The translations under genes were made by a program, and so were the position numbers. From a virus, in the IMG/VR virus record IMGVR_UViG_3300000358_000010: 61,575 bases of DNA, one strand, 5' to 3'. The first letter of the stretch is position 1. Each line of letters opens with the position of its first letter. Positions 1 to 61,552 of this stretch are shown one piece after another. A model generated the notes under the pieces. The model had not been told where the DNA came from and searched no databases. It worked only from the letters and a program-made list of their open reading frames with translations.

Positions 1-23
1 GGAAGCCCCATTACATTGAAGTA
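1..23. repeat. Terminal 23-bp direct repeat, left copy (GGAAGCCCCATTACATTGAAGTA). Either the att core (attL) or the DTR of a circularly assembled phage genome.
   Basis: 23/23 identity with 61553..61575. Everything between the two copies is phage. Confidence 0.9.
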
Positions 24-234
24 GCTAACAATACAATATACATACTTAATTATTAAGCAATTAACATCACGAAATAATATTCAATAAAACATTTGTAAAA
101 CAAATAACTATTTTAAAGCAAACCAAGTACTTCTCCTATTTTCTTTTGCGAATATATTGCATTACTGTTAAAAATCAAAATAATTAATAGACTACATAGA
201 TACGGTGGATATTATGATGATGAGAGGGTAATAG

Positions 235-259
235 TAAGGCAGCTTATTGGGCTGCCTTA
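235..259 (-). terminator. Hairpin downstream of the small ORF 328..552 (weak terminator candidate)
   Basis: 9-bp stem TAAGGCAGC/GCTGCCTTA with a 7-nt loop. No clear U-tract follows. Confidence 0.3.
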
Positions 260-327
260 TAAGTAATTCAAGGAATACCTGAAAGCAAAACCAAGAAAAA
301 AATTAGCTTTCTATAATTCAATTTCTA

Positions 328-552
328 CTAAAAATGGATTCTATTAGGAAATCCTGGAACAACAGCAGCAGGTAGCACAACTACATATGAATTTGTTGAC
401 TCTAAATCATAAAGAGTTGCGTTTCCAGCAGCTGCTCCAGTCAATGCTGTTGCCCCTGCAGCAGTACCCATATCAACCGTAATTGGTGGGGTCATAGTTA
501 CAACATGTCCAAAATAGGAACCACCACCGGCTATTCTAATTTCACATCTCAT
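328..552 (-). CDS. Hypothetical small Gly/Ala-rich protein (74 aa)
   Basis: ORF track. A TAtcTTTG -7-like box lies upstream on the minus strand (around 622..629). No recognisable domain and an unusual composition. Confidence 0.35.
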   Translation of the reverse strand: MRCEIRIAGGGSYFGHVVTMTPPITVDMGTAAGATALTGAAAGNATLYDLESTNSYVVVLPAAVVPGFPNRIHF

Positions 553-667
553 AATATAATAAAATTATTTCCTACTCTTTCAAAGGCTTTTCGGAACCCG
601 CCTATAAATTGACTATCTCTGTAAGCTTACGGTACAAAGATATAGGGATAGAGAACCGAGAACAATT

Positions 668-752
668 ATAAATTTTAGATAAGGGAATCAGTTTTTCGGG
701 TACAGAAAGATTTCTTTTGAATGAAAAAGCCCTGACTCTTTGGAGTCAGGGC
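668..752. repeat. Intergenic repeat, copy A (conserved segment plus terminator hairpin)
   Basis: Colinear similarity of roughly 75% by eye to 3084..3172, including the shared AATGAAAAAGCC and GGAATC blocks. Confidence 0.7.
724..752 (-). terminator. Intrinsic terminator after the lipoprotein operon
   Basis: 10-bp stem GCCCTGACTC/GAGTCAGGGC with a 4-nt loop, followed on the minus strand by TTTTT. Confidence 0.8.
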
Positions 753-792
753 AATTGATCTAAAACAATCCTATTACTAGTCTTAAAACACT

Positions 793-1362
793 CTAGTGCA
801 CCAATCCAAACCTAATCTTCAAAAGAACGCTTTTACATCCCTCCTGCGTGAGAAAGGTTTGGGTTGTCTCAAAATAGATGACTTGTTTATCCGTATTAAC
901 TATCATTTTTTCTGGATATTCAAATGTATACACACTGGCATCATCTGCTATTTTTTGCCCTTTATTCAATACATAACTGCTTGGAGTATCTGATTTAATA
1001 TCTACATAATACTGAATTGATACATTAACATAGTCGATTTTCATCCCTTCACTATAATGACAAGGTAACTCTTCAAGCAATTTTTGCTGATTGATTAAAG
1101 GCTCCGGCCATAAAAGATCAACAGAAGGATATTTATTGCCATAGAGAAATAAAGCACATGTGTTTAATGAACCGATCTCCTTTTTTAGATCAGTATGTTT
1201 AACCCCATCGAAATTAATATCGACAGGTTCGTTAGCTTCTATCTCCATCAATGTATACTTACCCCAAGTAATAGGCCTATCTTCAATCTCCTTTTTGTTG
1301 CAAGAAAAGAAAGCAAACACAGAAAACAGTAGCAGTACTTTTAATATATTTATCATAATCAA
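793..1362 (-). CDS. Lipoprotein (189 aa), function unknown
   Basis: Signal peptide plus lipobox (LLLFSVFAFFSC-NKKEIED). Overlaps the upstream gene by 4 nt (ATGA), consistent with an operon. Confidence 0.75.
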   Translation of the reverse strand: MIMINILKVLLLFSVFAFFSCNKKEIEDRPITWGKYTLMEIEANEPVDINFDGVKHTDLKKEIGSLNTCALFLYGNKYPSVDLLWPEPLINQQKLLEELPCHYSEGMKIDYVNVSIQYYVDIKSDTPSSYVLNKGQKIADDASVYTFEYPEKMIVNTDKQVIYFETTQTFLTQEGCKSVLLKIRFGLVH

Positions 1363-2921
1363 TAGATTTTCTTAGGAATTAAAGTCATTTCTACCATTGG
1401 ATTTTTAGCACTATAATAATTCTCGATATCCCTCGATGAACGATTATTTTTAAGTATCGGATCATAAAAATTAACCTCGAGTGTTCCCAAATGGTCAGAA
1501 CCCTTATTCATAACTTTTGTAAACGTATTCTCTTTTACTTTCTTGGCAGAACCTCCAAAGTTTAATCCAACTTTCTTTCCTATACCGACATTAAGTCCGA
1601 CATTACCAGCAAATTCTGTTGAAACTTTCTCCTGCGTAGTAAATACTTCCTGTTCATCAACTTCATATATATCAAACTTCCACGAAACAGAATTACTTTC
1701 TAAATCCCATCCAATTAAATCTATATCAGGATTATAACTATACGGTACTGATCCCGTGACTTTAAAGACCCACATATCTAAAATACGGTCTTTAACACTC
1801 GGTCTTGGCATAGGAATACCATCCCATGTAAGATGAAATAATTTCCATGGCTCTACTGAGAAATATTTTGTAATAACACTGCCAAGTCCAGAAGTATTTC
1901 CAATCAAAACGTCTATTTTAAATTCAAACCTACCTTCTCCCCAAAATGACCTATCTTTAGGAGAGGACTTCTCAAATCTTCTACTCCAATGTAGATCTTG
2001 ATAAAATTTAGGATCATTTGTTTGATCCGCAATCTTATACAATGCCTGTGTACTAAAATGCAAACATGCGATATTTTCTATTATATTTCTTTTTATTTCT
2101 CCTTCAGTGTTATTCCTATTTAATCCATAATAAATATTATCCCGCTGCCATAACCCATCATTTACCCCCATTTCTTTATAAGCTAAACGGATATGCTCTG
2201 TGGAGTAATTGTATTTCCATAACATAGCCTTTTCATCCTCTGAAGCCCTTGTAACCGCAACCTCACGCTTATTGATTCCGTCAAAAGCGCTATCAACAAA
2301 AGAGTAATCTCCATTTATTATATTAGGATTATTGCTTCTTGTAGTATTTGTTGTTTTAACAATACGCTCATTATTCTTTAGTACTAAGACAGGAAATCCA
2401 GGCACTAAATCAGATTCTAATTTAAAATGAAGATCGCCCCCAAAATAGAAAGAAATAGAATCATTCTCTACTAAGTTAGTACAAACATAAGGAGAATCAC
2501 CGAAAGAATTCCAATTTTCAGCATTAAACCCAGAGGGAAGCTCCGGAATATATATGGTCAATAGAGGTAATCTTTCTTCTACAGCGTCTAAACTATTATT
2601 AAAATCATAATCTTTAAGAACTTCTTTAAATGTTTTATCAGCTGTAACCTTTTTATTCTTAACTAACGGATAAAAAACGTCATAGTCATTATCTGTCATT
2701 TTTAAAGCTTCTTCTTTAATAAAGGCTCTGAGATCACTGTTATTAGAAACAGCTTTAGATAAAATCTTAGAAAAAGTATCAAAATCACTGAGAACAGATC
2801 CAGATTGAGGATGAATGTTGGTACTTTCTATTCCATCCCAAACGTCATCATTTGTACAAGAATAAATTAGAGTAAGAAACAGCAATCCATAGAATAAATT
2901 AGTTTTCATAATTAATGTCAT
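1359..2921 (-). CDS. Large lipoprotein (about 516-520 aa), function unknown
   Basis: MKTNLFYGLLFLTLIYSC-TNDD lipobox with acidic residues after the Cys. The alternative start at 2909 (MKTN) is more likely than 2921. Confidence 0.8.
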   Translation of the reverse strand: MTLIMKTNLFYGLLFLTLIYSCTNDDVWDGIESTNIHPQSGSVLSDFDTFSKILSKAVSNNSDLRAFIKEEALKMTDNDYDVFYPLVKNKKVTADKTFKEVLKDYDFNNSLDAVEERLPLLTIYIPELPSGFNAENWNSFGDSPYVCTNLVENDSISFYFGGDLHFKLESDLVPGFPVLVLKNNERIVKTTNTTRSNNPNIINGDYSFVDSAFDGINKREVAVTRASEDEKAMLWKYNYSTEHIRLAYKEMGVNDGLWQRDNIYYGLNRNNTEGEIKRNIIENIACLHFSTQALYKIADQTNDPKFYQDLHWSRRFEKSSPKDRSFWGEGRFEFKIDVLIGNTSGLGSVITKYFSVEPWKLFHLTWDGIPMPRPSVKDRILDMWVFKVTGSVPYSYNPDIDLIGWDLESNSVSWKFDIYEVDEQEVFTTQEKVSTEFAGNVGLNVGIGKKVGLNFGGSAKKVKENTFTKVMNKGSDHLGTLEVNFYDPILKNNRSSRDIENYYSAKNPMVEMTLIPKKIY

Positions 2922-3083
2922 TTAAAGGTTATTATACAAAAGAAAACAAGGTTAAATAAATTAATGTTTTCTGCATTACAATACATTAACAAATTGCAAA
3001 TACAAAGACCATAAAATCAAATTTTAAGCATACTCCCCTCATTTATATTAAAGTCTATAAATATAAAAGAATCAGGAGCGATC

Positions 3084-3172
3084 ATAAATTTGCGAGATAA
3101 TGGAATCGACCTTTCACGGATACAAGAAGACTTCTGTTAAATGAAAAAGCCTCGACTCCCAAGAATCGAGGC
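3084..3172. repeat. Intergenic repeat, copy B (conserved segment plus terminator hairpin)
   Basis: See copy A (668..752). Same order of blocks and same position relative to a terminator. Confidence 0.7.
3144..3172 (-). terminator. Intrinsic terminator after the ATPase-TIR gene
   Basis: 7-bp stem GCCTCGA/TCGAGGC followed by TTTTT on the minus strand. Confidence 0.7.
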
Positions 3173-3285
3173 CAGCAACTTAATGATAAGATGCTTCTAC
3201 AGTGCAAGAAAAATATATCTTTCCGATATGGGATAAAAACAGCCTAAACTAGAAAGATAAAACATTAGCAAACAAGAAGAATATG

Positions 3286-4779
3286 TTAATCTATTTTCAG
3301 CATTCGCTTGTCATTCAATTTCTCGTAAAGTAACTTAGCAAATAATTCTAATTGTTCATTCATGTCTTTTTGATGGTCATACATTAAATTACCTATTGAG
3401 AATAATGGATCAAATTGTGTCGGTTCACAACCTTTGAACAAGATAGGGATAACAGCATGTTCTCCAAATCGTTCCTTAAATCTATCTGATTCAAAATTTG
3501 TCCAAAGTTTTTTAGGATAGTTCTTATCGACCAAAACTATTATATAATCTGCATCTGATTTATATATAGGCTCAAAATACTCGCTTAAATCTTCTCCTAA
3601 AATTCGATGCTGCTCATTATAATCATAAAAAACACTACAAGAGTACTTAAATTCCAATATATCGACTAATTTAGCCGCAATAGTCCGTACTTCTCCAGCA
3701 AAAGAGATTGCGAAATCATAGTTTTTTACAAAATCAACATTACTAAAACCTATTTTACTTGCAAATGTATCCCAGTTAATGTTTTGTAAATAGAAAATAA
3801 ACTTAGGATCCTCCACTGTTAAGGTTTTTGAATTATCATCATAATGAATAACAGATTGTATGTTATCATTAGAGCTAATCAATTTTACCAGATAGCCTTT
3901 TTCTACTACTTGAGAAATACTAGCCTTATGAGTTGGATGGGATAAATAAACATCACTCATTCGGATAGACCATTCTTGGGAATCAGAAAGCCACTTTAAA
4001 AGATGAAAATATGGTGCTCTTCCTCCACTGCGTAATCTGGTTCCAACAGCAAAATCTTTTGCTTTATCATCAAAAACCCGACTTAAATCTTTCATCAAGC
4101 CTTGAATTACATAATTAATATCAACATTAAGAGTTTTTAAAGAGTCCAGAGAGTTTAAAACCCCTTCTTGTATACATAATTCTTTGCAAATCATTTGTGC
4201 TATATGAAAGCTTCCATTAGCTTTCTTTACAATTTGTTGTTTACAAGAAATATCTACATTTAAGACTTTTTCTCCCTTAGATATTAAGTCCATTATCTTA
4301 TTTTCTGGATTTACCTCAAATTTAACGGTAGTTACTCGATTATTTAAATCTGGAGATATTTTTATTAAACTATCTCCTGCCCTGTTAATGCCGATCAGAA
4401 CCAACTTCATATCATCCCTTTCTTCATCAGCAATAACCTTCATTAAACTCGCTAATTTCTCTTTAGTTTCATTGGGCAATAAATGAAAATCATCTATGAT
4501 TGCTATATTATTGCAAGCATTATCATTTATAATATTATCAATTCGACTCCTATCGTTTAGTTTTCTTGCAGATAATAGTTCAACATTATCTTTATCAAAA
4601 TGCAACGACTCTAAAACTTTCAATACACATGTAGTTTTCCCAATTCCAGATGGACCTTCAACTATAAGGCATCTTCCTCTTGTTCTCAATGAAACAACAA
4701 TTTTTGAGTATTCATTGGGTTCAACAAATGTATATGTTGGTATCCCAGAATCTTTAAAAACTTCCTCTAAATTGACCAT
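3286..4779 (-). CDS. P-loop NTPase with a C-terminal TIR domain (497 aa); candidate defence effector
   Basis: Track ORF 3286..4914 trimmed to the internal ATG at 4779, because the upstream 45 codons read through an AT-rich promoter. Walker A is GPSGIGKTT and Walker B-like is IAIIDDFH. The C-terminal 130 aa or so fit the bacterial TIR pattern (YDFAISFAGE..VFYD..IIVLVD..WTNFE). Confidence 0.8.
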   Translation of the reverse strand: MVNLEEVFKDSGIPTYTFVEPNEYSKIVVSLRTRGRCLIVEGPSGIGKTTCVLKVLESLHFDKDNVELLSARKLNDRSRIDNIINDNACNNIAIIDDFHLLPNETKEKLASLMKVIADEERDDMKLVLIGINRAGDSLIKISPDLNNRVTTVKFEVNPENKIMDLISKGEKVLNVDISCKQQIVKKANGSFHIAQMICKELCIQEGVLNSLDSLKTLNVDINYVIQGLMKDLSRVFDDKAKDFAVGTRLRSGGRAPYFHLLKWLSDSQEWSIRMSDVYLSHPTHKASISQVVEKGYLVKLISSNDNIQSVIHYDDNSKTLTVEDPKFIFYLQNINWDTFASKIGFSNVDFVKNYDFAISFAGEVRTIAAKLVDILEFKYSCSVFYDYNEQHRILGEDLSEYFEPIYKSDADYIIVLVDKNYPKKLWTNFESDRFKERFGEHAVIPILFKGCEPTQFDPLFSIGNLMYDHQKDMNEQLELFAKLLYEKLNDKRMLKID

Positions 4780-4806
4780 AATCCAAAAATACAAATGGTA
4801 TATTAA

Positions 4807-4822
4807 TATATTTGCAAATATA
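4807..4822 (-). promoter_or_regulatory. Perfect 16-nt palindrome TATATTTGCAAATATA carrying a -7 box (TAnnTTTG) on both strands; probable ATPase-TIR promoter
   Basis: The minus-strand TATATTTG lies 36 nt upstream of the ATG at 4779. Confidence 0.6.
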
Positions 4823-4990
4823 AATAAATTATGATATATAACAAATAAATTTTTAATTAAAATTTTATCGTCAAGAATTAACAAAAAATAGCTTACTCCT
4901 TTTTTATACATCAATTGTCATGTAATTATCCTTTCACTAACATAGCCAATGCCGGACAATCCATTAAAGAAATATGGTTTTATTGTTTCT

Positions 4991-5455
4991 TCACCACTCA
5001 AACAAATTACAACTCACCCCAACCCCAATATAGAGACTTGCCTTATTCCCGGAAAAACCGTATCCAGCCTGCACACCCAGCCCGAACCGTTTCCGCTTTG
5101 CCCGTTCTCTGATAAATACAGTCCTCGTTTTACTGTACACCTCTATACTATCCAGCTTTGCCCGGTAGCCTGACACATAAGCCGTATAAAGGCTGTCTTT
5201 GTAGATTTTCTGCGTAATAGGCAAATACACTGTATCCCGGACTGTATCGCCCGGCACTGGGACGGGAACAACGAACGGGAACGAATCTACAACGCTTTCA
5301 TAAACCGGAACGGGTATTGTATCCCGAACCGTATCAATACGATTTGTAATGATCGTGTCTCTGACTACTTCACCCGGTGCGTGTTCCACCCTTGCCGGGC
5401 GAAACACGATAAACAGGATAAGAACAATTATGATAATGTAAGGCAAATATTTCAT
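4991..5455 (-). CDS. Membrane-anchored lysis-cassette protein (spanin-like) with repeated TVRDT motifs
   Basis: N-terminal TM segment (YIIIIVLILFIVF). Motifs VVRDTI, DTVRDTI and DTVRDTV. Overlaps the amidase stop by 4 nt. Assignment is by position in the lysis cassette. Confidence 0.6.
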   Translation of the reverse strand: MKYLPYIIIIVLILFIVFRPARVEHAPGEVVRDTIITNRIDTVRDTIPVPVYESVVDSFPFVVPVPVPGDTVRDTVYLPITQKIYKDSLYTAYVSGYRAKLDSIEVYSKTRTVFIRERAKRKRFGLGVQAGYGFSGNKASLYIGVGVSCNLFEW

Positions 5456-5946: not shown

Positions 5947-6395
5947 TTCTGTACCTCCTTTATTTTATTGATTAACTCCAACGCATCTTTCTCAGATGCA
6001 CATTTGATGATATTAGCTATTACACTGGGAAGCTCCGCAGCATGACTGCGTTTCCGTCTGTTATGTTCTATCAAACTACGGAACTCGATATAAAGCACAC
6101 CGGCAGTGATCAGCAAAGTAATGTATGGCAAAACATACCATGCAAACATCAATCCCAGTGTATCAAACATCAATCCAAACAGCATCAAGCGCCAGTAGTC
6201 ACCGGCCTTGGCCACAGTCTTTCTAAGCCCCTTGCTCTGTATAGGCTCTTTCAGCGCCTTTGCAGTCTGAATACCATCCCACATGTCTATAAGCGTGGAC
6301 AAAAACATAAGTAACCAGCATAGAAGAGTCACACAAGCATGTCGGTAAAGATTTGAAAAGTCTAACGCAGACACAAAATTCAAAATTTCATTCAT
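5943..6395 (-). CDS. Holin (150 aa, multi-TM)
   Basis: Hydrophobic helices (VTLLCWLLMFLSTLI; LMLFGLMFDTLGLMFAWYVLPYITLLITAGVLYI) and a charged C-terminus. Overlaps the lysin start. Confidence 0.7.
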   Translation of the reverse strand: MNEILNFVSALDFSNLYRHACVTLLCWLLMFLSTLIDMWDGIQTAKALKEPIQSKGLRKTVAKAGDYWRLMLFGLMFDTLGLMFAWYVLPYITLLITAGVLYIEFRSLIEHNRRKRSHAAELPSVIANIIKCASEKDALELINKIKEVQK

Positions 6396-6423
6396 CTATC
6401 CATTTATTTATAATATTGTTATT

Positions 6424-9400
6424 TCATATTTCATACAGTTTAGTAGGCATGTATCCGTTATATTCGGATAACGGGAAAATAATGGAAGCATAACCGGATA
6501 TTACACTGGATTTATAATCGCTTACAGCTGTATCAGGAACATATATGGCGACTACATTACCTAATCCGGCATACTCCAAGGTCGTAGGTGGAGTCGTAGA
6601 TTTAAAAATGACCGTCACAGAATTGCATCCGTTAAACATACGCGATCCTATAATATCAAGATTCCCCTCAAACACAACGGTCCTTATCTTTTTGCAGTTA
6701 GCGTAAGACTGAGAACCGGACTTTATTATGTTTACGGGAACACATGAAGCCGCTATCGGGGTATTCTGAAACATTTCATACGAAGTGCTGTTAACATAAC
6801 CTTTCAGTTCACCGAAATCACACTCTTCCAACGACACACAGTTTGAGAAAGAAAGTAAATTAAAGATTGTTGTCATTGAATCTTCCCCATATTCGAAAGA
6901 GTTGCACTTGAACCTTTTCAGTTTCGAACAATCGGAAAACCCTTTATTCATCGTATAGTGCCTTTCGGGAGGTATGATAAAGTCTTTCATCGTAAACTCC
7001 TCAAGCTCGGAACAATTATAAAAAGGCATATAATCACTCCCTCCTCCGGAAGATAAGAATGTGCAGGAATCCGGAAGATTCACTTTCTTTATCTTAGTTC
7101 CCATAAATGCACGTTGGTAGATCTGTTTAAGATTAGGGGGAAAGACAGCTGTTTCCAAATTGGTATTCTCAAAAGCCCCATATCCGATCTCCGTACAATT
7201 ACTCAGACTCTCAAACCCGACCAAGGAAGTGATATTCTTATAATTTTCATTTTTATCACCTGACAGAAAGTATCTTGGTATCGATGTAATCAAGTCGGCT
7301 TCATCCCGGGTTATTCCACCGTCACCGTTGACATCCCATAGCTCAAAGACTCTTTGAGCGACTATCTTATCGGTAAAACGAATAAAATACTTACCGATCA
7401 CATTCAGCTCTAACCTTTTAAAAGTTCCCCTCAAAGCCTGAATCGAATCCTCGTACGCATTCGCATACACATTTAAAGTACCGTCCAGCACCGGGTATTC
7501 ATCCTCACCGGCCACACCTTCGCTGTCAAGACCTACATACGAGCCATCCGCCAAAGCGGCCAGCTTATCCAGCATGTCGGAAGTGTTATACGTTTCATCA
7601 AAACCGACAGCACGGACACGCTTCAACGAATGTCCGGCGCCTTGTCCCTGCTGTGCGTCCATGATCTGTGTCAGGAGCTTGATAGGCTGCATAAGCGGGC
7701 AGTCTGAAATGAAAAAGTCAGTGATTACGGCTGCGCATTCATCTATCAAGACACCACTGTTCTTCATTAACGGATAGTTCTTAAGAACGAGGTAACGGGA
7801 CAAGGCGTTAAACTCTACCAGCTCCAATCCGCCGCCTGCCGGAAGACGAAGCTGGGTGATGGAAGTCCCGTCGATGTACACCTCCTTCAGGTGGCTGCAG
7901 GCGGTAAGGTTCAGAGTGCCCGCCAGCGTGGATATGCGTGAGAGCACAAGCTTCTGCAAGCTGACACAGTTGGAAAGTGTAAGCGACGAAATGGAAATCA
8001 CAATGCCGGCAGTCTTATGCCCAAGCCGGATCTCGCGTAGCATCTTACCCTGTACGATCATGGAACCGGTGACGTTCTTGTCGTGCCAGTCCCCGATATC
8101 CTGCAGGTAGCTTGCCGCCTGAATGGCGTTCTGCTGGTCACCCGTACCTCCCAATTCGATTTCCATATGACAGACCTCACCGGCTTTCGTCCGGGAGCCA
8201 CGGATGATACTCGTACCGTTGGCAATGGCAGGGTACATATCCATGGCCGGGGTGATGTCATAACCGATCGAGTTCCCGGCGGCACGTACTACGATGGTAT
8301 CCGTTCCATTGGCACTGAACAGGCCGAAACTATACTTCGACATCATGTACAGTATCCTCTTTGTTATCCACCGCTGTTCGGCGAGATAGTGATCTCCCAG
8401 TGATTGCGTGATAGGATCGGTATCGTTCGTGTACCGCCCGTCATTGTAAGCTATCTTACCGTTTTCGTAGCAATACTTCGCATCTGCGTTATAGGCGTTC
8501 TGAGGGAAGTATTCCTGCGCTACATCAAAGTAATACTTCTGGTAGAAAGCGTACAGTTTCTGTAAGTCGTTACCGGACTTCAACCCGCCTAATGTCTGCA
8601 TGGCTGTCATGGAACTTCGCATAGAAGCAATTTTCTCGTCCGGGAAAGCCAGTTCCATCAGGTTAAAGAAGTTATTTGTCTCACCGTTCCAGATAGCCGC
8701 CCCTGTTTCGTCCTTGTCATGTACCTCGACGCTGTATGACTTATCAGGCAATCCGCGGTTGGTGGTGTCGAAACGGGTGTCGGCATCATCCACACGCCAA
8801 CGCCATCGGCTGGTATCCGTTCCGAAGCTGTAGGGATAGGTATTTTTGGCACGTTCATCGGTACCGGCATTGAACTCGACGTTGTTCATGAAGAACAGAC
8901 AATCATTGATTTCCCAGTATTGCGGAGCGTCATTTCTGAACTTAGCTATACGGGAATTGATAAACAGTTCATTCAACTGGTCTGCCGTAAATGCGGACAG
9001 GTTTCCGGTATCCATGTAACCGGCCAGTTGCGTTTTCAAGTTTATGGTACCGTTCCCGATATCGGAAGCTATGAACTGACCGACGGAAGACTCGTAATAG
9101 TAGACATTATATTGGTTCACATCCCCGGCTTTCGCTATCCAGAACTCGTAGGGTTCGTTCTTGTAGGCGGAGGCCTGTCCGTTCAGTTCGGTCAACGTAC
9201 CGATGAACGGCTTCAACCGTGGAGAGCACTGGTAGACGCAATTGTATGCCGGGATGAACTTGGATATATTCTCCACTTCGCCTTCACCCAAATCGAAACA
9301 GTTCTGCCCGTTGTACTGATACGCCTCTTCGTCTTCATTGTAGGCTATCAATCCCCGTGCCGGATTCCAGGGGACACGGAACAGGGTGAGCAGCGGTGAG

Positions 9401-44502: not shown

Positions 44503-44664
44503 TTACTTCTTCTCGCCCTCATACACCAACAGAATCCTATCACAAAGCATCAATCTGTGTAATTTCTTGCGGGTTTGTTCAATACTGTCGGTCTCGATAT
44601 TTACGTTGTGAATATCACGGACTGCGCCAGTGACATACTCAACTTTAGCTATTAGGTGTTTCAT
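44503..44664 (-). CDS. Small ORF (53 aa), not in the track
   Basis: MKHLIAKVEYVTGAVRDIHNVNIETDSIEQTRKKLHRLMLCDRILLVYEGEKK*. Heads the leftward operon, divergent from the HNH gene. Confidence 0.4.
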   Translation of the reverse strand: MKHLIAKVEYVTGAVRDIHNVNIETDSIEQTRKKLHRLMLCDRILLVYEGEKK

Positions 44665-44712
44665 TGGAATAATTATTTTTCTATTTTAATTTATATACTC
44701 GAAGAAAACTTA

Positions 44713-44720
44713 TATATTTG
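44713..44720 (+). promoter_or_regulatory. -7 box TATATTTG for the HNH gene
   Basis: Lies 26 nt upstream of the ATG at 44746. Confidence 0.6.
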
Positions 44721-44745
44721 TTCTCAAACTAAAAGAGTTAATACT

Positions 44746-45522
44746 ATGTACGCTATCATAACCGAGAATGACTTATCACAATGGAAAGACAAGACTGGGG
44801 AATTATATCATCATCCCAAACGGCATTTGAAATCTCTTGTACCTGGAACTAAGGTTATTTATTATAAAGGTAATCTTACAGATAAACAATATGAGAAACA
44901 TCGCTTGACATCGAAAGCTCATTATTTTGGAATTGGAGAGATTGGCAAACAATATCCTGATCCTAATTCTACTAAGAATGATTATTTCTCTGAGATAATA
45001 AATTTCCAAGCATTTGATAGTCCAATTTTTATAAAGGATAAAGATGGTCATTATTTAGAGACCATTCCAACTTCACGCCAAACAAACTATTGGCGAGATG
45101 GGACAAGACCTATAACCAAGGAAGTCTATGAAAAAATACTTTCTCAATCTTGTATTTCAATTGCAATAGATCAAAATGAAGAATTAACATCCAATGTAAC
45201 AGAGGGAAAGCAAAAAAAGACTTACTCAACTACATATGAAAGAAAACCTAAACTACGTCAACAGGCACTAAACATCCATGGTTATACATGTATGGTATGT
45301 GGATTTAATTTTCTCGAATCTTATGGAGAAGTCGGTCGTGGTTTTATTCATATCCACCATATAAAACCTCTTTCTGAAACTGGAGAACAAATTGTTGATC
45401 CCCAAACTGATCTAATGCCTGTATGTCCTAATTGCCATTGTATGATTCACCGAGGAAAAGACCGCGTTTTAGCAATTGAAGAACTAAAACAGATGTTGAA
45501 AAAGAATAAACTCACTCCATAA
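44746..45522 (+). CDS. HNH endonuclease with an N-terminal beta-rich reader-like domain (258 aa); candidate type IV or type II restriction nuclease
   Basis: Trimmed to the ATG at 44746. C-terminal HNH: CMVCGFNF...IHIHHIKPLSETG...PVCPNCHCMIH. The PUA/EVE-like assignment of the N-terminal 150 aa or so (WKDKTGELYHHP...GTKVIYYKG...YFGIGEIG) is tentative. Confidence 0.75.
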   Translation: MYAIITENDLSQWKDKTGELYHHPKRHLKSLVPGTKVIYYKGNLTDKQYEKHRLTSKAHYFGIGEIGKQYPDPNSTKNDYFSEIINFQAFDSPIFIKDKDGHYLETIPTSRQTNYWRDGTRPITKEVYEKILSQSCISIAIDQNEELTSNVTEGKQKKTYSTTYERKPKLRQQALNIHGYTCMVCGFNFLESYGEVGRGFIHIHHIKPLSETGEQIVDPQTDLMPVCPNCHCMIHRGKDRVLAIEELKQMLKKNKLTP

Positions 45523-45835: not shown

Positions 45836-46516
45836 TTAGAAAGTTTGTTGTATGCGGGATAACACAAATTTATTCGCATCAGCATAAAAATTCTTCTTGA
45901 TTTCAAATCCATATGCTTTGCGTCCTACTTGAACTGCTGCGAGTAAGGTGGAACCACTACCAGCGCATGGATCAATTACGACATCGCCTTTATCGGTAAA
46001 TATCTCTATCAACCTTCGAAGAAGCGGAACAGGCTTTTGTGTCGGGTGAATTTTGGGAGTTTCATTATCTACCACCCAATCGAAGCAGTTGAAAATCATT
46101 CGCCCATCATTATTGAATTTGGGAAGTTTTTCACGGTACAAGAGCAAACCATACTCACAGTTACCAACTACTTTCATATTTGCCTTGAGAACCTGAGCGG
46201 AGAAATTCTTTCTGAATACAAGGTTGATATAGTTGTTCAGCCCGTATCGTTTACCGAGTTCGATGTATCTGAACTGGTCTTCAAATTCACAGAAGATAAT
46301 CATACATGGAGCTTTACCTTTTTCTTTCGGCTCCTTTACAAGCATCTGACTGCAAAAGTACATGAACTCGGCAGGTCGAAAATCTTTATCAGTATCAAAG
46401 AACTCTTTACCGGCTTTATCACTTTCTCCGTTTTTGTTATTACCATCCACATACCATAAAGGGTTAGAAGCATAAGCATTATTCCCTAAATTATAGGGAA
46501 CATCGGCAATTATCAA
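45836..46516 (-). CDS. DNA methyltransferase, beta class (N6-adenine or N4-cytosine)
   Basis: Motif IV-like ADVPYN sits at the N-terminus and motif I VIDPCAGSGSTLLAA near the C-terminus. Only a TTG start is available, and the frame stays open for 28 more codons upstream without a start codon. Confidence 0.8.
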   Translation of the reverse strand: MIIADVPYNLGNNAYASNPLWYVDGNNKNGESDKAGKEFFDTDKDFRPAEFMYFCSQMLVKEPKEKGKAPCMIIFCEFEDQFRYIELGKRYGLNNYINLVFRKNFSAQVLKANMKVVGNCEYGLLLYREKLPKFNNDGRMIFNCFDWVVDNETPKIHPTQKPVPLLRRLIEIFTDKGDVVIDPCAGSGSTLLAAVQVGRKAYGFEIKKNFYADANKFVLSRIQQTF

Positions 46517-55085: not shown

Positions 55086-55112
55086 AAAACTTATTGTTTA
55101 ATTAATGATTTG

Positions 55113-55194
55113 TGGATGGTAGAGGAGTCGAACCTCTCTCAATCATGCCAATTGGTTGCGCAACACGAAGCTCTAACCGATAAGCTAACCATCC
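55113..55194 (-). tRNA. tRNA-like gene with canonical acceptor, D and T arms but a 16-nt anticodon loop (non-canonical or pseudo-tRNA)
   Basis: Minus strand: GGATGGT-TA-GCTT/ATCGGTTA/GAGC-T-TCGTG[TTGCGCAACCAATTGG]CATGA-TTGAG-AGAGG/TTCGACT/CCTCT-ACCATCC-A. No 5-bp stem with a 7-nt loop can be drawn. Confidence 0.5.
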
Positions 55195-55549: not shown

Positions 55550-55920
55550 AATTATGTATATTAGTTAGTGCCTGTACCCCCATTGAAGAAAAGCTGTTAT
55601 GCTTGGTAGAACTCATATTTCAAGTTCAGTACAGGCTATATGTTCGAAAACAGTACGGACGCCCAACCCGTTTTCTTACTGCTCTGGGACGATTCTTTGC
55701 GGTGTTTTCTATTAATTGTTATACATTGTACAGCTCGCAAGCTCCAACTTGCTTATGTACGTTCGTTATCTTTGGTCAACCTTGTACAGCTTATAGTATT
55801 ACACCGTAAAGGTTTTCACAATCTTGTCAAAGAGCTTAATCAATAGCGCCCTACCCGATTCTCGCTATCGGTTGCCGTTCAATCCGTCAGTAGGGCTGTC
55901 GTGCGTTGCATAACCGTGTA

Positions 55921-56166
55921 TTATGCGTATCGGCTCAAACCTTGAACCTCACAAAGAGCATCGTAATCCATACCGCTATCTTCACCTGAGTCAGAACCTA
56001 AAAGAATAGTTTCATAAGTCTCAATCTCTTCTTTTATCACCTCAATAATATCAGCCTTACAATCTACGTTGTAAACTCTACAAGCAGTTTCTTCGTCCAT
56101 GCCCTCAACTGCTACCAAGTCCCTGCGAAGAGCATTTAAACCTTGTTCTAATTCATAAGTAGTCAT
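55921..56166 (-). CDS. Hypothetical acidic protein (81 aa)
   Basis: ORF track. ACGATTATG start context. Confidence 0.55.
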   Translation of the reverse strand: MTTYELEQGLNALRRDLVAVEGMDEETACRVYNVDCKADIIEVIKEEIETYETILLGSDSGEDSGMDYDALCEVQGLSRYA

Positions 56167-56177
56167 AATCGTAAGTA

Positions 56178-56504
56178 TTAAGCAATTGATAATAAATTAG
56201 CTTTTTTATAGCACCTGAACTCGCCACGCTCTGTATCATAGTAAGTCTGGACGGTATCATTCTTCGCTCTCTTGTCATTGCCTGTTATGGCGGGCATCAA
56301 CTTTTCATTGAGTGTACCATACGCCTCTCTTACAGAACCGTCTACTTTTTTGAAATAAAACTTGACGATCTTCTTTTTCATCTCAGCTTTCAATTTCATG
56401 TTTACCCAAGCAGACCTTAGAGCTTCAGACATTGAAAAGCCATTCTTTCTTACGAACTGCCAAGCCAATGACATTACTTCGTGTAAAAATTCTCTTGTTT
56501 TCAT
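56178..56504 (-). CDS. First rightmost early gene (108 aa), DUF2693/SH3-like (tentative)
   Basis: The KFYFKKVDGSVREAYGTL...YYDTERGEFRCYK pattern. Divergent from the repressor. ACGATTATG start context. Confidence 0.55.
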   Translation of the reverse strand: MKTREFLHEVMSLAWQFVRKNGFSMSEALRSAWVNMKLKAEMKKKIVKFYFKKVDGSVREAYGTLNEKLMPAITGNDKRAKNDTVQTYYDTERGEFRCYKKANLLSIA

Positions 56505-56605: not shown

Positions 56606-56620
56606 CTATCTTATTGCAAT

Positions 56621-56694
56621 ATATCGCTAAATATCGCAATAAAATATTGCTATATTGACAATATTTAACATTATGAATAAGATTAATATCGCAA
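56621..56694. promoter_or_regulatory. Operator candidates: three ATATCGC copies, including a 2x AATATCGCAA direct repeat
   Basis: ATATCGC at 56621, 56631 and 56686. AATATCGCAA at 56630..56639 and 56685..56694. The third site lies inside the repressor's 5' end. Confidence 0.5.
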
Positions 56695-57371
56695 GTTTAA
56701 GGAAGTCTCTGAGACTAAGGCAAAAGGATTTTGGTGAAAAAATTGGTATCAAACAAGCCTATTTGTCAGAAATAGAAAGTGGCAAAAAGCCTCTTACAGA
56801 GGAATTATATAATAATATTATAGAAGTATTTGGCATGGATAAAGTTTCTGAACACTTTATCAGCACGAATGATAGCGATATTATCGCAAATAAAAATACA
56901 AACGAAGCAGTACCTTTAAATCAGAACTTTATAATAAATGTACCTCTCGTGAACCAATACGCACAAGCCGGATATATATGCGGCTTCCAAGATGCTGCAT
57001 ACATAGCTACACTACCTACTATACCATTCATTATTGACCATGAAGCAAAAGGAAACTATGTAGCCTTTGAGGTCAGAGGAGACAGTATGAATGATGGAAC
57101 AGAAGAAAGCTATCTTGAAGGAGATAGGCTTCTTTGTAGAGAAATAGCTCCCTATCTATGGGCAGAGTCTAAATTGCATATTCGGAAATGGGATTTCGTT
57201 ATTGTACATGAAGGCGGAATTTTGGTAAAACGAATAATAGATCATAATGTAGAAAATCATACTATCACAATACACTCTTTGAATGACATGTATCCTGACA
57301 GAGTTATTGATTTGGCAGAAGTTAAACAAATCTTCAATGTGATAGAATTGCAAAGGCCAAGAAGGAGGTAG
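56673..57371 (+). CDS. cI/LexA-like repressor (XRE HTH plus S24 peptidase, 232 aa)
   Basis: Trimmed to the ATG at 56673. HTH is LRQKDFGEKIGIKQAYLSEIESGKK. S24 motifs are RGDSMNDG and ILVKRII. Confidence 0.85.
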   Translation: MNKINIASLRKSLRLRQKDFGEKIGIKQAYLSEIESGKKPLTEELYNNIIEVFGMDKVSEHFISTNDSDIIANKNTNEAVPLNQNFIINVPLVNQYAQAGYICGFQDAAYIATLPTIPFIIDHEAKGNYVAFEVRGDSMNDGTEESYLEGDRLLCREIAPYLWAESKLHIRKWDFVIVHEGGILVKRIIDHNVENHTITIHSLNDMYPDRVIDLAEVKQIFNVIELQRPRRR

Positions 57372-57455
57372 TTTAAAAGTTTAATATACAAACTATTAAA
57401 ACTGATGCTATGAAATTCAATCAATACACATGGAACTTATAAACAATAGAATATT

Positions 57456-58496
57456 ATGGAAGATATAACTTCAGAACTCAATGAGCAAAAAAGAAAAGTA
57501 GATTTTAATTCTTACGATATGAGTGTAAAGGAATTAATATCTATGGTAAATGATGGACTTATTGACATAGCCCCTGAATACCAAAGACAATTCAGATGGG
57601 ACACATTTAGGCAATCAACTCTTATTGAGTCTATTTTCTTGGGTATTCCAGTGCCTTCTTTGTTCATGGCAACCAATCCAGACGGCACATGGGAAGTGAT
57701 AGATGGGGTACAAAGACTTAGTTCCATCATTAATTTCGCTGCAGAAAAAGACTCTTCAGCAAGAAAGAAAATTAAAAAAGAAACTCCATTACAACTTTGC
57801 GAACTGAAGAAAATGAAGTCTTTTAATGGAAAGGATTTCAAAAGCTTACCGCGTTCATTACAAATTGACTTTTTGCTAAAACCGTTAAAAATAACAACAT
57901 TAAGTGACAAAAGTGACAAATCCATAAGATTTGACCTATTTGAAAGATTAAACACCGGAGGCATAAAATTATCAGACCAAGAGATTAGAAGCTGTATTTT
58001 CAGAGGTCAATTTAATGATTTTTTAAAAAGACTATCCTTAAATAACAATTTCAGAAAGGTTGTAAAACTTTCTAAAGGTGCAGAAAATGATGGGACAAGA
58101 GAAGAACTGATTCTTCGTTTCTTTTCATGTTTGAATAATAAAAGTTCCTTTGATCATAGTGTTGTTGACTTTCTGAACGATTACATGAATGATTCTTGCA
58201 GGAATTTTAATTATGAAATAAATGAGCGTATATTTAATAATGTGTTTACTCAATTATCCGGTTTAAGCCATGGCATAGTAAAAAGCAGAACAAGCACCAT
58301 AACTTCAGTTGTTCTTTTTGAAGCTGTTTCTGTTGGAGCCGCAGAGGCTTTGAAAGAAAAAGACTCCATTAACATTTCAGCCTTTTACGATTGGGTAACA
58401 GATAAAGACTTTAATAAATTAATCACTGGAGCTACAAACTCAAAACCTAAACTCCTTGCAAGAATAAAATTTTGTAGAAGCAAATTTTTAGAATAA
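57456..58496 (+). CDS. DUF262 (ParB/GmrSD N-terminal-like) protein (346 aa)
   Basis: DIAPEYQRQFRWDTFRQSTLIESIFLGIPVPSLF...VIDGVQRLSSI fits the DUF262 pattern. No DUF1524/HNH tail is present. Confidence 0.8.
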   Translation: MEDITSELNEQKRKVDFNSYDMSVKELISMVNDGLIDIAPEYQRQFRWDTFRQSTLIESIFLGIPVPSLFMATNPDGTWEVIDGVQRLSSIINFAAEKDSSARKKIKKETPLQLCELKKMKSFNGKDFKSLPRSLQIDFLLKPLKITTLSDKSDKSIRFDLFERLNTGGIKLSDQEIRSCIFRGQFNDFLKRLSLNNNFRKVVKLSKGAENDGTREELILRFFSCLNNKSSFDHSVVDFLNDYMNDSCRNFNYEINERIFNNVFTQLSGLSHGIVKSRTSTITSVVLFEAVSVGAAEALKEKDSINISAFYDWVTDKDFNKLITGATNSKPKLLARIKFCRSKFLE

Positions 58497-59143
58497 TGTT
58501 CGAAGATGTAAATGCTGAAGTCAATAGACGGTTAAAGGAGGTGAAATCATTTTATTCCCTAATAAAAGCCAACCCTGAAACTGAAGTTTTCGACATGAAG
58601 GTGTTCAAAGGTACATGTTTTGTAATACTGTATGGCGTTTTAGAATACACAATAACTGCTTCAGTTCAAAAATGCTTATCTATTATTAATCAAAAAAAGT
58701 ATGATATAATACATCTTAAACCGACATTGTATTCAATGGTTTTCAATGATGAATGTAATGCTATGATGGAAGCAAGAGACAAAAAATGGATGAAAAGACA
58801 TGATTTATTTTCCCAAATAAATTGCAGTCAAGTTTGTCATATAGAAGATAACTTATTTCCTGCAGGTTCAGGGAATATAAAATACCAACAAATAGAATCT
58901 ATATGGAAAATTTTTGGTATATCCGCTCCTGCAGTAAATGAAGACAAAATGAAAGGGCGTTTATCGACATTGGCAGATAATAGAAACGCAATAGCCCATG
59001 GACGGGAATTGGCTTCAGTTATAGGAGGAAGATATACTATAAGCGAAATAGAAAATATATATAATGACATTAGTACATACTGCAGCTATATAACTTCAGC
59101 ATTTGAAGAATACATTAATAATGAGGATTGTTTAATCCACTAA
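58496..59143 (+). CDS. HEPN-domain protein (MAE_28990/MAE_18760-like, 215 aa)
   Basis: Rx4H motif LADNRNAIAHGRE near the C-terminal third. All-helical. The start overlaps the DUF262 stop (TAATG). Confidence 0.7.
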   Translation: MFEDVNAEVNRRLKEVKSFYSLIKANPETEVFDMKVFKGTCFVILYGVLEYTITASVQKCLSIINQKKYDIIHLKPTLYSMVFNDECNAMMEARDKKWMKRHDLFSQINCSQVCHIEDNLFPAGSGNIKYQQIESIWKIFGISAPAVNEDKMKGRLSTLADNRNAIAHGRELASVIGGRYTISEIENIYNDISTYCSYITSAFEEYINNEDCLIH

Positions 59144-59220: not shown

Positions 59221-59640
59221 ATGATTGACTTTTTAACTATCATACTTCTTATATTCGGAGTACTACAAATTATCCTCTTTTTTAAAGTGTGGGGAATGAC
59301 GAATGACGTAAACAACATTAAGCAAAAGCTGGAAACCAAGCCGGAAGATTTGCTAATTACCGAAGCTCAAACAAAAGCCCTGAACGGAAATAAAATGGAA
59401 GCTTTTGAGTTATACCAAAAGGCGTTCTACAAAAGTGTGATAGAACTCTTCAATAAGACTATCAAAGAATATGGGGACGAAGATAATTTAGATTATAAAG
59501 AAAGAAATGAATATTACCGCTCAGAGTACAATAAAGTAGTTAAATACTTTTCAAAAAGGACAAAAAAATTAGACATGGAATTACATTCTGAGAAATTAGA
59601 TTCATACGATAAGGTATATTCTATTATATGTAAATCATAA
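59221..59640 (+). CDS. Membrane-anchored helical protein (139 aa); N-terminus paralogous to 23101..23436
   Basis: N-terminus MIDFLTIILLIFGVLQIILFFKVWGMTNDV. Confidence 0.65.
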   Translation: MIDFLTIILLIFGVLQIILFFKVWGMTNDVNNIKQKLETKPEDLLITEAQTKALNGNKMEAFELYQKAFYKSVIELFNKTIKEYGDEDNLDYKERNEYYRSEYNKVVKYFSKRTKKLDMELHSEKLDSYDKVYSIICKS

Positions 59641-59753: not shown

Positions 59754-60092
59754 ATGAAAAAGTATTTATTCGCATTAACATTATTACTGCCCCTCCTCCT
59801 TGGTGGGTGTTCCAGTGACGATCAATCAGATGACAACAACTCTCCGTTAATCGGATCTTGGATATCCATAGATGATGATGTCGAGATTTTCTATCTTGAC
59901 CTCAAAAAAGACGGGACAGGGAAATGGACCGGAACCTACGCCGGAGAAGTGGAAAATGTACTAAGGCTCACTTGGAGTGCAACCGAAACCACTTACCATG
60001 TCAAATATGAAAACGGCAATTCTGAAACAAAACAGTATAGAATAGAAGGAAACCGCCTCTATTTAGGAGATGTGATATATACCAGGAAGTAA
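59754..60092 (+). CDS. Lipoprotein (112 aa), probably surface-exposed
   Basis: LLLPLLLGGC-SSDDQSDDNN: a lipobox followed by an acidic, export-signal-like stretch. Confidence 0.75.
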   Translation: MKKYLFALTLLLPLLLGGCSSDDQSDDNNSPLIGSWISIDDDVEIFYLDLKKDGTGKWTGTYAGEVENVLRLTWSATETTYHVKYENGNSETKQYRIEGNRLYLGDVIYTRK

Positions 60093-60096
60093 AGCC

Positions 60097-60118
60097 AGCC
60101 GGGGATCACTCCCCGGCT
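60097..60118 (+). terminator. Intrinsic terminator embedded in the integrase 3' coding end
   Basis: Stem AGCCGGGGA/TCCCCGGCT with a 4-nt loop, followed by TTTTT. Confidence 0.75.
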
Positions 60119-61380
60119 TTTTCTTCGTCCTTCTTTTTTGGATGGAACACAAAATCAATTACCTTCCGATTTGCCTTATCAATCCTGCTCCAGTCCTTTT
60201 TAACATAAGTATCTGTGACATTATACCCAGACTTATGATTCAATGACATTGCTACATCATCCATCGAAATACCGCAGTCGTTCCTTGCTATTGTAGCCCA
60301 AGAGTGGCGCGCAGCATAAAGAGTTAAATCGGGAATACCTAAAGCAATCCCTATCTTTTTCAGATTAAGATTCACCTTATGCACAAATTGCTTATGGCTC
60401 GCATATCTTATAAAGAAATTAAACGCTCTATCCCCTACTGAATCCTTATATCTTTCCAAATAAGGCTCAAGCTCCGGTTCTACTTTAATGGAAATAAAAG
60501 CCCTATCATCCCGCCTGGTTCTTGTCTTCCTCCGCTCGTACTCAAATCTATCATCAACAGGAGGATTCAAATAAAACATATCAACGGTATTCATTCCAAC
60601 CATAAAGAACGACATCAGAAACACATCTCTGGCAATAATGACACCCAACATATTTTCCGGTATTCGATACTCTTTTATAGCTCTTATCTGTTCATCCGTT
60701 AAAGAACGCTTTCTTGTAATCGGTTGCTTTGGAATTTTGTATTTAGCAAAGGGATTATTGGAAATGCGGATTATTCCGACATCTTCATCGTTATATTCAA
60801 GCTTTGCCCGATTAAATAACGCTTGTATCTTCGACATATAAAGCCGAACCCCAGAATCAGAAATATTTCCAATACCACATTTTGACCGTTGACTCTTTAA
60901 ATCTTCTTCGAATTTAATTAAGAGAGAAGATGTGATATCCGAGAAACATAAATTTCGATTTCCCACGAATGCCTCAAACTTGCTAATAGCAATTCGATAA
61001 TTTTCCCCTATCCGCCTACCTTCTTTCAAAACCTTATCCGCATAAGCATAACCAAAGTCGAAGAAGTTAATTCCTTCAGGCTTATTAGAAAGTTTATCTT
61101 TCATCAGTTCACATAATCCTTTAGCAGAATACAAATCAATAGAGTGACCCAATTTTGAAAGTTCGGCTCTAATTTTAAGAACATCGAGCATTACTTGGTC
61201 ATAAATCGGATTATTCCTTTCTTTTAGCTCAAAAGTCTTCTTGTTTATCAACTCACTTCCCACATAGTGAGTGGTCGCAATATATGAAGATTGACGTTCG
61301 TGCGTAATCCGTATCTTCACATTCCAGGTATTATCTTCTCGCCTTTGATGCTTGAGGATGATTATTTTAACTGTAGCCAT
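60106..61380 (-). CDS. int: Tyrosine integrase (425 aa)
   Basis: Trimmed to the ATG at 61380 (MATVKIIILKHQRRED). C-terminal motifs are AARHSWAT and LNHKSGYNVTDTYV. Confidence 0.9.
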   Translation of the reverse strand: MATVKIIILKHQRREDNTWNVKIRITHERQSSYIATTHYVGSELINKKTFELKERNNPIYDQVMLDVLKIRAELSKLGHSIDLYSAKGLCELMKDKLSNKPEGINFFDFGYAYADKVLKEGRRIGENYRIAISKFEAFVGNRNLCFSDITSSLLIKFEEDLKSQRSKCGIGNISDSGVRLYMSKIQALFNRAKLEYNDEDVGIIRISNNPFAKYKIPKQPITRKRSLTDEQIRAIKEYRIPENMLGVIIARDVFLMSFFMVGMNTVDMFYLNPPVDDRFEYERRKTRTRRDDRAFISIKVEPELEPYLERYKDSVGDRAFNFFIRYASHKQFVHKVNLNLKKIGIALGIPDLTLYAARHSWATIARNDCGISMDDVAMSLNHKSGYNVTDTYVKKDWSRIDKANRKVIDFVFHPKKKDEEKAGE

Positions 61381-61435
61381 CGTTGTAAAACATTTAATCG
61401 TGCATTCCTGTTTTTCGTAAAACGTTCGTAAAACA

Positions 61436-61481
61436 ATTGCGCAAAGATAGCAAATTAATTTAGATATGCTATCTTTGCGCA
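61436..61481. promoter_or_regulatory. Perfect 16-bp inverted repeat TTGCGCAAAGATAGCA / TGCTATCTTTGCGCAA with a -7 box (TATCTTTG) on each strand; integrase promoter/operator
   Basis: Arms at 61436..61451 and 61466..61481 with a 14-nt AT spacer. The minus-strand box lies about 60 nt upstream of the int ATG. Confidence 0.65.
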
Positions 61482-61552
61482 ATACAAAGAGAAACAGTTA
61501 ATTACATCTAAAAAGCTATAGCTTAAGTAGTTCTCTATACAGTTTTTGCACC

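Follow-up and report, generated by a model that had tools for sequence, protein, structure and literature searches.

What purpose is served by a pair of overlapping genes placed between the repressor and the integrase of a Bacteroides prophage? The pair, denoted A and B, lies in a 61,575-nucleotide (nt) stretch of viral DNA (IMG/VR record IMGVR_UViG_3300000358_000010), the whole of which is referred to here as the window. The window is a complete temperate Bacteroides siphophage (prophage), and its siphophage gene set includes a large terminase, portal, major head, tape measure, Sak4, and helicase. Bacteroides phage BS-TP2 matches the window at 84% DNA identity across ~39.4–56.5 kilobases, with the similarity ending at the repressor boundary. 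Nearly all genes of the window are on the − strand. The sole + strand block is that of lysogeny, composed of the repressor, A, B, an open reading frame (ORF) of 139 amino acids, and a lipoprotein of 112 amino acids, after which a hairpin at 60097–60118 ends the block. The probable answer to the question is that A and B form a self-contained anti-phage cassette of the DUF262+HEPN class, carried as a moron in the lysogeny operon between repressor and integrase.

Gene A (57456–58496, +) encodes a 346-residue predicted sensor and gene B (58496–59143, +) a 215-residue predicted RNase effector. The stop codon of A and the start codon of B overlap by 1 nt in the sequence TAATG. An earlier note, made from the letters of the window, had given these positions, lengths, and overlap exactly. 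It had also assigned A to DUF262 without the DUF1524/HNH nuclease half and B to the Rx4H class of HEPN proteins, and profile searches accept both domain families. The Pfam family GmrSD_N/DUF262 (PF03235) matches residues 25–181 of A with an E-value of 2.8e-30 and 106 bits, well above the curated cut-off of 33.2, and no DUF1524 or HNH family is listed in Pfam for either A or B at E ≤ 1. The three motifs that define DUF262 (PMC12065111) are all present in A and are kept in 77/77 homologues. These are motif I, QRxxxW, as QRQFRW (57582–57599, +); motif II, DGxQR, as DGVQR (57702–57716, +), the predicted nucleotide-binding centre, which is DGVQR in 74 of the homologues and DGLQR in 3; and motif III, FxxxN, as FERLN (57939–57953, +).

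The layout of A is a ParB-DUF262 domain resembling a nucleoside triphosphatase (NTPase) at residues 25–181, followed by a helical ParBDB-like C-terminal domain at approximately residues 185–346. Helical domains of the ParBDB type have been described for NsnA, DndB, GmrSD, and SspE (PMC12065111). In an AlphaFold2 (AF2) model of A (pLDDT 84), the N-terminal domain is alpha/beta and the C-terminal half is helical. The top fold neighbor of the model in the PDB is BrxU (7p9k, probability 0.98), followed by the CTP-binding proteins ParB, Noc, and KorB, then PadC and sulfiredoxin (Srx). The modeled fold fits a ParB/Srx-type nucleotide switch joined to a ParBDB-type helical domain. Sequence searches of the PDB with a profile of A return a sole, weak match to an 818-residue DUF262 protein. 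Among the PADLOC defence models, NsnA is the top match (2.9e-65) and PD-T4-2_A also matches (1.9e-50). Both cover A at full length, the latter at profile positions 39–354 of 363; the SspE, HEC-05, and HEC-06 models reach only the first ~70–90 residues of A. Relatives of A are abundant, with ~2,500 matches among clusters at 90% identity, the top 120 of which are 58–100% identical.

Gene B passes the thresholds of two Pfam HEPN families over its full length, HEPN_MAE_28990 (PF18737; E 1.8e-16, 61.4 bits, cut-off 26.8) and HEPN_RiboL-PSP (PF18735; E 1.7e-15, 57.8 bits, cut-off 28.4). The Rx4H motif is RNAIAH (58982–58999, +), spanning Arg163 to His168 and followed by invariant Gly169 and Arg170. 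It is invariant in the alignment of homologues (A2) and is kept at the equivalent position in 77/77 full-length copies of B, the two exceptions being truncated; this invariance argues for a catalytic role. The AF2 model is all-helical, with a pLDDT of 82. No PADLOC defence model matches B, and a PDB sequence search with a profile of B found nothing. A word-indexed search returned 36 matches to B, many on contigs that also carry relatives of A, and an exhaustive profile search gave 1,293 B-family clusters at 50% identity, nearly all of 210–240 residues.

That the two genes form a module, as the earlier note had proposed, is borne out by their linkage across genomes. One genome per species was surveyed, which gave 182 confirmed homologues of A, and the best 80 of these (46–73% identity) were used. 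They come from more than 10 phyla, among them Bacteroidota, Bacillota, Pseudomonadota, Planctomycetota, Acidobacteriota, Chloroflexota, Actinomycetota, and Deinococcota. In 79/79 evaluable loci, meaning those of the best 80 where the sequence continues, the gene right after A is a homologue of B. The partner ORFs encode 213–243 residues, start between −37 and +13 nt relative to the A stop codon, and all 79 match a profile of B relatives with E-values from 3e-16 to 2e-101. A and B co-diverge (Mantel r = 0.85, a value reached by 0/999 permutations), and B evolves about twice as fast, with a mean pairwise identity of 30% compared with 55% for A. A Pfam scan of the upstream neighbors of 68 loci found no recurrent third gene. 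These neighbors are heterogeneous, with scattered integrases, HTH/S24 repressors, and restriction genes; their 25 most frequent Pfam families include no DNA methyltransferase, and there is no consistent ATPase. A and B are an obligate, co-inherited two-gene cassette.

More distant DUF262-HEPN pairs exist, in each of which A is 27–34% identical to that of the window. One is on the P2-like coliphage P24B2 (L081), where B is a 239-residue protein of the MAE_28990 type and a methyltransferase gene is nearby. Others are on an E. coli IncF plasmid, an IncX1 plasmid (L085), and a Roseomonas plasmid (L086), the last in the order methyltransferase, A, B, nine are in records of Moraxella catarrhalis Mcat phages, and one is in Akkermansia phage Chambord (L084). 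On the E. coli and Roseomonas plasmids, the HEPN partner already bears the PGAP name ‘MAE_28990/MAE_18760 family HEPN-like nuclease’.

The earlier note had held that the pair was neither named nor characterized, and here it was wrong. In addition to the PGAP partner name, the DUF262+HEPN architecture is known as PD-T4-2, has PADLOC models, and is listed as ‘DUF262, HEPN’ and as validated in Table S1 of Vassallo et al. 2022. In that work, deletion of PD-T4-2 from its native host ECOR65 restored T4 plaquing, and a cloned copy also protected. A plasmid with PD-T4-2B H127A is listed, and according to the authors none of the four systems so tested could do without the residues that were mutated. 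The HHpred table of the same study gives DUF262, DndB, and ParBc for protein A of PD-T4-2, with RiboL-PSP and MAE_28990 as the top two matches of protein B, a domain composition that is also that of the window pair. A 2026 preprint merely lists PD-T4-2 among HEPN-containing systems.

A reference copy of PD-T4-2 was recovered by means of a 50-nt lambda-red primer arm (Vassallo et al. 2022, Table S8), which is found exactly in 17/5,426 complete E. coli genomes. The copy analyzed (L087; E. coli NZ_CP013025.1, 3553868–3555503) has A at 6001–7095 and B at 7100–7603 of the locus, and its identity is confirmed by PADLOC scores of 538 bits for A and 213 bits for B. It is part of a P4-like satellite integrated at ssrA, where it lies between psu and the convergent integrase. 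The clade of the window was not found in the same 5,426 genomes by blastn with a Buttiauxella pair (L028) as the DNA probe.

The position of the pair in a lysogeny operon, also claimed in the earlier note, is right, and a comparison of loci backs it. The + block is opened by a CI/LexA-type lysogeny repressor (56655–57371, +) with Pfam matches to HTH_3 (1e-08) and Peptidase_S24 (6.9e-09); translation probably starts at the ATG at 56673 instead of the TTG at 56655. The gap of 84 nt between the repressor and A (57372–57455, +) is terminator-free. The one sigma-70-like match in it is weak and carries no meaning for Bacteroides, a genus to which a sigma-70 promoter scan does not apply. Hairpin terminators were not predicted within the block, from the repressor to the hairpin at 60097–60118. 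The Bacteroides −7 motif TAnnTTTG was not found anywhere in the + block nor upstream of the repressor, and because it is missing even 5′ of the repressor this promoter test is uninformative. From the layout, A and B are predicted to be co-transcribed with the repressor.

The order repressor, A, B recurs in temperate phages unrelated to that of the window, with five other phage or prophage lineages showing it. In Moraxella phage Mcat24, an S24-HTH repressor is followed by an 80-nt gap and then by A and B. In two Pasteurellaceae loci (L039 and L040), which belong to the clade of the window, a CI-type or S24-type repressor ends ~95 nt 5′ of A. In four Bacteroidales prophages (L089–L092), A is 73–75% identical to that of the window and an S24 repressor lies 21 nt 5′ of it; a small BDI_0842 protein is encoded 3′ of B, with an integrase remnant next in three of them (L090–L092). 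The early regions of these prophages differ from that of the window, with ERF as opposed to AAA_24/Sak4 recombinases. Akkermansia phage Chambord (L084) has the order repressor, methyltransferase, A, B, and its short B weakly matches PD-T4-2_B. On a contig where A is 92% identical to that of the window, the upstream genes are others again, namely a Cro/C1-type HTH protein and a 305-residue protein of unknown function. The presence of the same cassette amid differing immunity regions means that the cassette moves among them and that its linkage to a repressor is a repeated solution. This recurrent placement supports expression of A and B in lysogens, as far as gene order can tell.

If the pair is an anti-phage cassette, its action can be pictured as follows. 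The lysogen would make A and B together with the repressor. A would bind the DNA of a superinfecting phage, and it may recognize the modification state or some other feature of incoming or replicating DNA. Binding or hydrolysis of a nucleoside triphosphate (NTP) by A would then lift the inhibition of B and so activate it. B, which probably dimerizes to form a composite Rx4H site, would cut RNA, either tRNA or mRNA, and the resulting stop in translation would abort the infection. The steps of this scheme are borrowed from related systems: anti-phage activity and the HEPN requirement from PD-T4-2, the DUF262 sensor/NTPase from GmrSD, BrxU, and SspE, the DNA-activated HEPN anticodon cleavage from DARNA, further effector features from other HEPN defences, and the published model of NsnA action in Menshen. 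A sensor and RNase logic, which the earlier note had also put forward, is the reasonable reading of A and B.

Several results weigh against this picture. With a mean identity of 55% across phyla, A is more conserved than is usual for a defence sensor. The three PADLOC models of PD-T4-2_B (PDLC04028, PDLC04029, and PDLC04030), on which the reference PD-T4-2B scores 213, 111, and 126 bits, miss the B of the window at E ≤ 1. Profile alignments of the two B proteins by hhalign (15 vs 1, 15 vs 22, and 223 vs 32 sequences) cover only 18–59 columns around Rx4H at a probability of 5–7%. Foldseek returned no significant PDB match to the B model, and the HEPN domain of sacsin ranks 12th with an E-value of 1.5; because there is no significant PDB neighbor, it is the profile matches and the invariance of the motif that place B among the HEPN proteins. 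The extrapolation from PD-T4-2 thus depends mainly on A and on HEPN membership at the level of Pfam. Direct homology between B and PD-T4-2B was considered and rejected, as the motif helix alone aligns, with a local BLASTP match of 54 residues at an E-value of 0.002, and the link is only through common membership of PF18735.

Among other explanations, the one that fares best is a toxin-antitoxin or addiction module: the HEPN RNase B would be the toxin and protein A the antitoxin, and the main role would be to stabilize the prophage or plasmid by post-segregational killing instead of sensing phage. Protein partners are frequent among HEPN toxins, as in HepT-MNT, and the genes overlap with the putative neutralizer upstream. 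The faster evolution of the effector would also agree, as would the surroundings of distant relatives, which adjoin plasmid replication genes on the IncX1 plasmid and a RelE/ParE toxin-antitoxin pair on the Roseomonas plasmid. A highly conserved NTPase-type protein of 346 residues with a DNA-binding-type domain and strictly kept nucleotide-pocket motifs, however, far exceeds the needs of an antitoxin, and the nearest relative of the pair with experimental validation defends against phage and could be removed from the native host. Addiction is therefore considered unlikely as the main role, although the two roles are not mutually exclusive, as many abortive infection systems resemble toxin-antitoxin modules.

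A further explanation, less likely again, casts the pair as a restriction-like system: A would itself target DNA, as a ParB-like nuclease or nickase that is type IV-like or guided by methylation, and B would assist as an RNase or be a partner without catalytic activity. BrxU, the top fold match of A, is a type IV enzyme, the window phage encodes an N6/N4 DNA methylase (45836–46516, −), and methyltransferase genes directly precede the Akkermansia and Roseomonas pairs and lie near the coliphage pair. This methyltransferase link suggests that the three distant pairs belong to a three-gene subtype resembling restriction-modification, unlike the stand-alone two-gene clade of the window, where the commonest upstream families include zero DNA methyltransferases. 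In GmrSD, BrxU, and SspE, moreover, it is the DUF1524/HNH domain that cleaves and DUF262 that serves as the NTPase/sensor domain, and A is without the former. An accessory or non-catalytic B is also at odds with the invariant Rx4H motif and with the H127A mutant built for PD-T4-2B, given that the mutated residues are reported as essential (Vassallo et al.).

Decay of a Menshen system (NsnABC) to an orphan NsnA that has lost its ATPase and effector genes, which the top PADLOC match of A could bring to mind, is very improbable, as no neighbor matches NsnB or NsnC, the A proteins of PD-T4-2 and of the other pairs likewise match NsnA, and the same HEPN partner in 79/79 loci marks a stable architecture.

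The anti-phage cassette remains the preferred reading, and a bolder extension of it is offered tentatively, as a possibility that falls well short of probable. Under this extension, the long-HEPN clade to which the window pair belongs would be a distinct, bacteria-wide defence family that escapes current PADLOC models. The unusually conserved A would serve as a DNA clamp or switch gated by NTP, in the manner of the CTP-dependent ParB, Noc, and KorB proteins, sensing a generic feature of invaders and directly licensing the HEPN RNase without an ATPase transducer. Temperate phages of several phyla would have independently put the cassette under repressor-linked expression for superinfection immunity. 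If true, the pair would be a minimal two-protein pathway from DNA sensing to RNA cleavage.

The remaining features of the + block lie outside the conserved pair. Upstream, a repeat search found operator-like palindromic repeats TATTGCAATAT, ATATCGCAATA, and TATTGCTATAT at 56607–56694, within the regulatory region that separates the divergent early genes (−) from the repressor. The cluster also includes two copies of AATATCGCAA. These palindromes look like CI operators. Downstream of B and co-oriented with the pair, the 139-residue ORF (59221–59640, +) has a hydrophobic N-terminus and zero significant Pfam or PADLOC matches; it may also belong to the lysogeny operon. The final gene of the block encodes the predicted 112-residue lipoprotein (59754–60092, +) with the signal MKKYLFALTLLLPLLLGGC, which has just weak matches to Lipocalin_4 and lipoprotein families. 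In the related Bacteroidales prophages described above, its slot is occupied by the small BDI_0842 protein (PF21903). Both the 139-residue and the 112-residue proteins may be morons of the superinfection-exclusion type. The hairpin at 60097–60118 is a strong predicted bidirectional terminator with a 9-base-pair stem, 7 of them GC, and a folding free energy of approximately −22 kcal/mol. It closes both the + block and the convergent gene of a Bacteroidota-type tyrosine integrase (60106–61482, −; Pfam Phage_int_SAM_5 at 1.1e-08 and Arm-DNA-bind_5), which marks the prophage end.

At the prophage end opposite to A and B, a second candidate defence gene (3286–4914, −) encodes a 542-residue protein with an AAA/STAND-type NTPase domain and a C-terminal TIR domain (Pfam TIR_2 at 1e-06, nSTAND3). 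The protein matches the PADLOC candidate families PDC-S59 (8e-20) and PDC-S66, and its gene is within a stretch of 29–34% GC content in the low-GC region 1–5000. No matches were found for its neighbors at 1359–2921 (520 residues) and 793–1362 (189 residues). The early region, otherwise on the − strand, contains a + strand gene for a 288-residue HNH protein (44656–45522) with a weak match to the PADLOC model mREase_IV (1.9e-07). Adjoining it is the N6/N4 DNA methylase gene noted above, which matches PF01555 at 6.3e-23. The phage encodes this methylase and therefore modifies its own DNA, and such self-modification could be relevant if A senses modification state.

Two RNA motifs are above their Rfam gathering scores. 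The DUF2693-FD motif (55848–55896, −; 77.9 bits vs 44.5) is in the early leftward operon, downstream of a WYL_2/DUF2693-type gene (56178–56504) and an 81-residue ORF (55921–56166), and the DUF805b cis-regulatory motif (569–604, −; 44.2 bits vs 35.6) is near the left end of the window. ARAGORN predicts a tRNA-like gene at 55112–55194 (−) of undetermined identity with the four-base anticodon ‘tgcg’, which is not among the Rfam matches at gathering level. This may be an unusual tRNA or suppressor encoded by the phage, or else a spurious prediction.

With the DUF262+HEPN architecture already named and validated as PD-T4-2, the window pair is not a new type of system. Its clade, however, is very widespread and strictly two-gene. 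Given that the PADLOC v2 models of PD-T4-2_B miss its HEPN partner and that A scores best on NsnA, automated annotation would probably leave the pair uncalled or mislabelled. The placement after CI-type repressors in phages of Bacteroidales, Pasteurellaceae, Moraxella, and Akkermansia points to prophage-encoded superinfection defence in gut Bacteroides, where to our knowledge few defence systems have been tested. Control of an RNase by a ParB-like NTPase has only been hypothesized for Menshen, and this family offers a minimal model for it, made tractable by an A so conserved and a B so variable.

How the pair relates to known systems can be stated component by component. In Menshen, the DUF262 protein NsnA has the same ParB-DUF262 and ParBDB architecture as A, and the proposed sensor and RNase logic is parallel. 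Menshen, however, has the NsnB ABC-ATPase (DUF3696) and the NsnC inPIN-nuclease, whereas the window couples HEPN to A directly. PADLOC finds neither NsnB nor NsnC among B and the 139- and 112-residue proteins, and Menshen is excluded by their absence. PD-T4-2A itself matches NsnA (1.6e-58), as do all other DUF262-HEPN A proteins examined, so the NsnA model captures an architecture shared by these proteins. GmrSD, BrxU, and SspE, a group of type IV restriction enzymes and the PT-sensing nickase, have in common with A the N-terminal DUF262 NTPase/sensor domain and its DGxQR motif. Their effector is a fused DNase (DUF1524/His-Me), whereas the window has a separate RNase effector and an A without the nuclease half; the absence of DUF1524 excludes all three. 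Dazbog was also considered and rejected, as its components are missing.

On the side of the effector, DARNA, ApeA, HepS, and PrrC-type systems resemble the window pair, as it is pictured here, in their Rx4H HEPN effector, which stays inactive until it receives an infection-linked nucleic-acid signal. DARNA (PD-T7-3) is the case in which DNA can activate a HEPN anticodon nuclease. It is a single polypeptide with its own C-terminal domain for binding single-stranded DNA, whereas in the window the putative DNA binding is on a separate ParB-like NTPase. Beyond the HEPN motif, no sequence similarity was detected between B and DARNA or other HEPN abortive infection RNases. The idea that DARNA is a renamed PD-T4-2 was rejected, as DARNA is PD-T7-3. 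A ParB-HEPN gene neighborhood had been noted by comparative genomics in 2013. It is of the same type as the window pair, and B matches its PF18737 family over the full length. The 2013 note was purely computational, and the window clade differs in having no methylase among its top 25 upstream families.

PD-T4-2 is the closest of the known systems. Both it and the window pair consist of two genes, DUF262 and then HEPN, without DUF1524/HNH, and each occupies the edge of a mobile element nearest the integrase, whose gene runs convergently to the pair. The A proteins are full-length homologues at 29% identity (BLASTP E 4e-38) with three motifs in common (QRxxxW, DGxQR, and FxRLN). Both B proteins pass PF18735, at 57.8 bits for the window and 31.4 bits for PD-T4-2B against the cut-off of 28.4, and they have a common catalytic helix, L..L...RNAIAH in the window and L..L...RNAAAH in PD-T4-2B. 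The differences are that the window B, at 215 residues, is ~50 residues longer than the 167-residue PD-T4-2B and also matches PF18737; that NsnA outscores PD-T4-2_A as a model for the window A; and that the carrier is the lysogeny operon of a Bacteroides siphophage instead of a P4-like satellite hotspot. The pair falls outside the strict PADLOC definition of PD-T4-2, as it has the A component and no match to the B models. It is thus a divergent ‘long-HEPN’ (MAE_28990-type) variant of the PD-T4-2 class, not a copy. By analogy, it would work like PD-T4-2, with which it shares the lineage of A and a HEPN family at the level of Pfam, and its B belongs to a separate ‘long’ subfamily.

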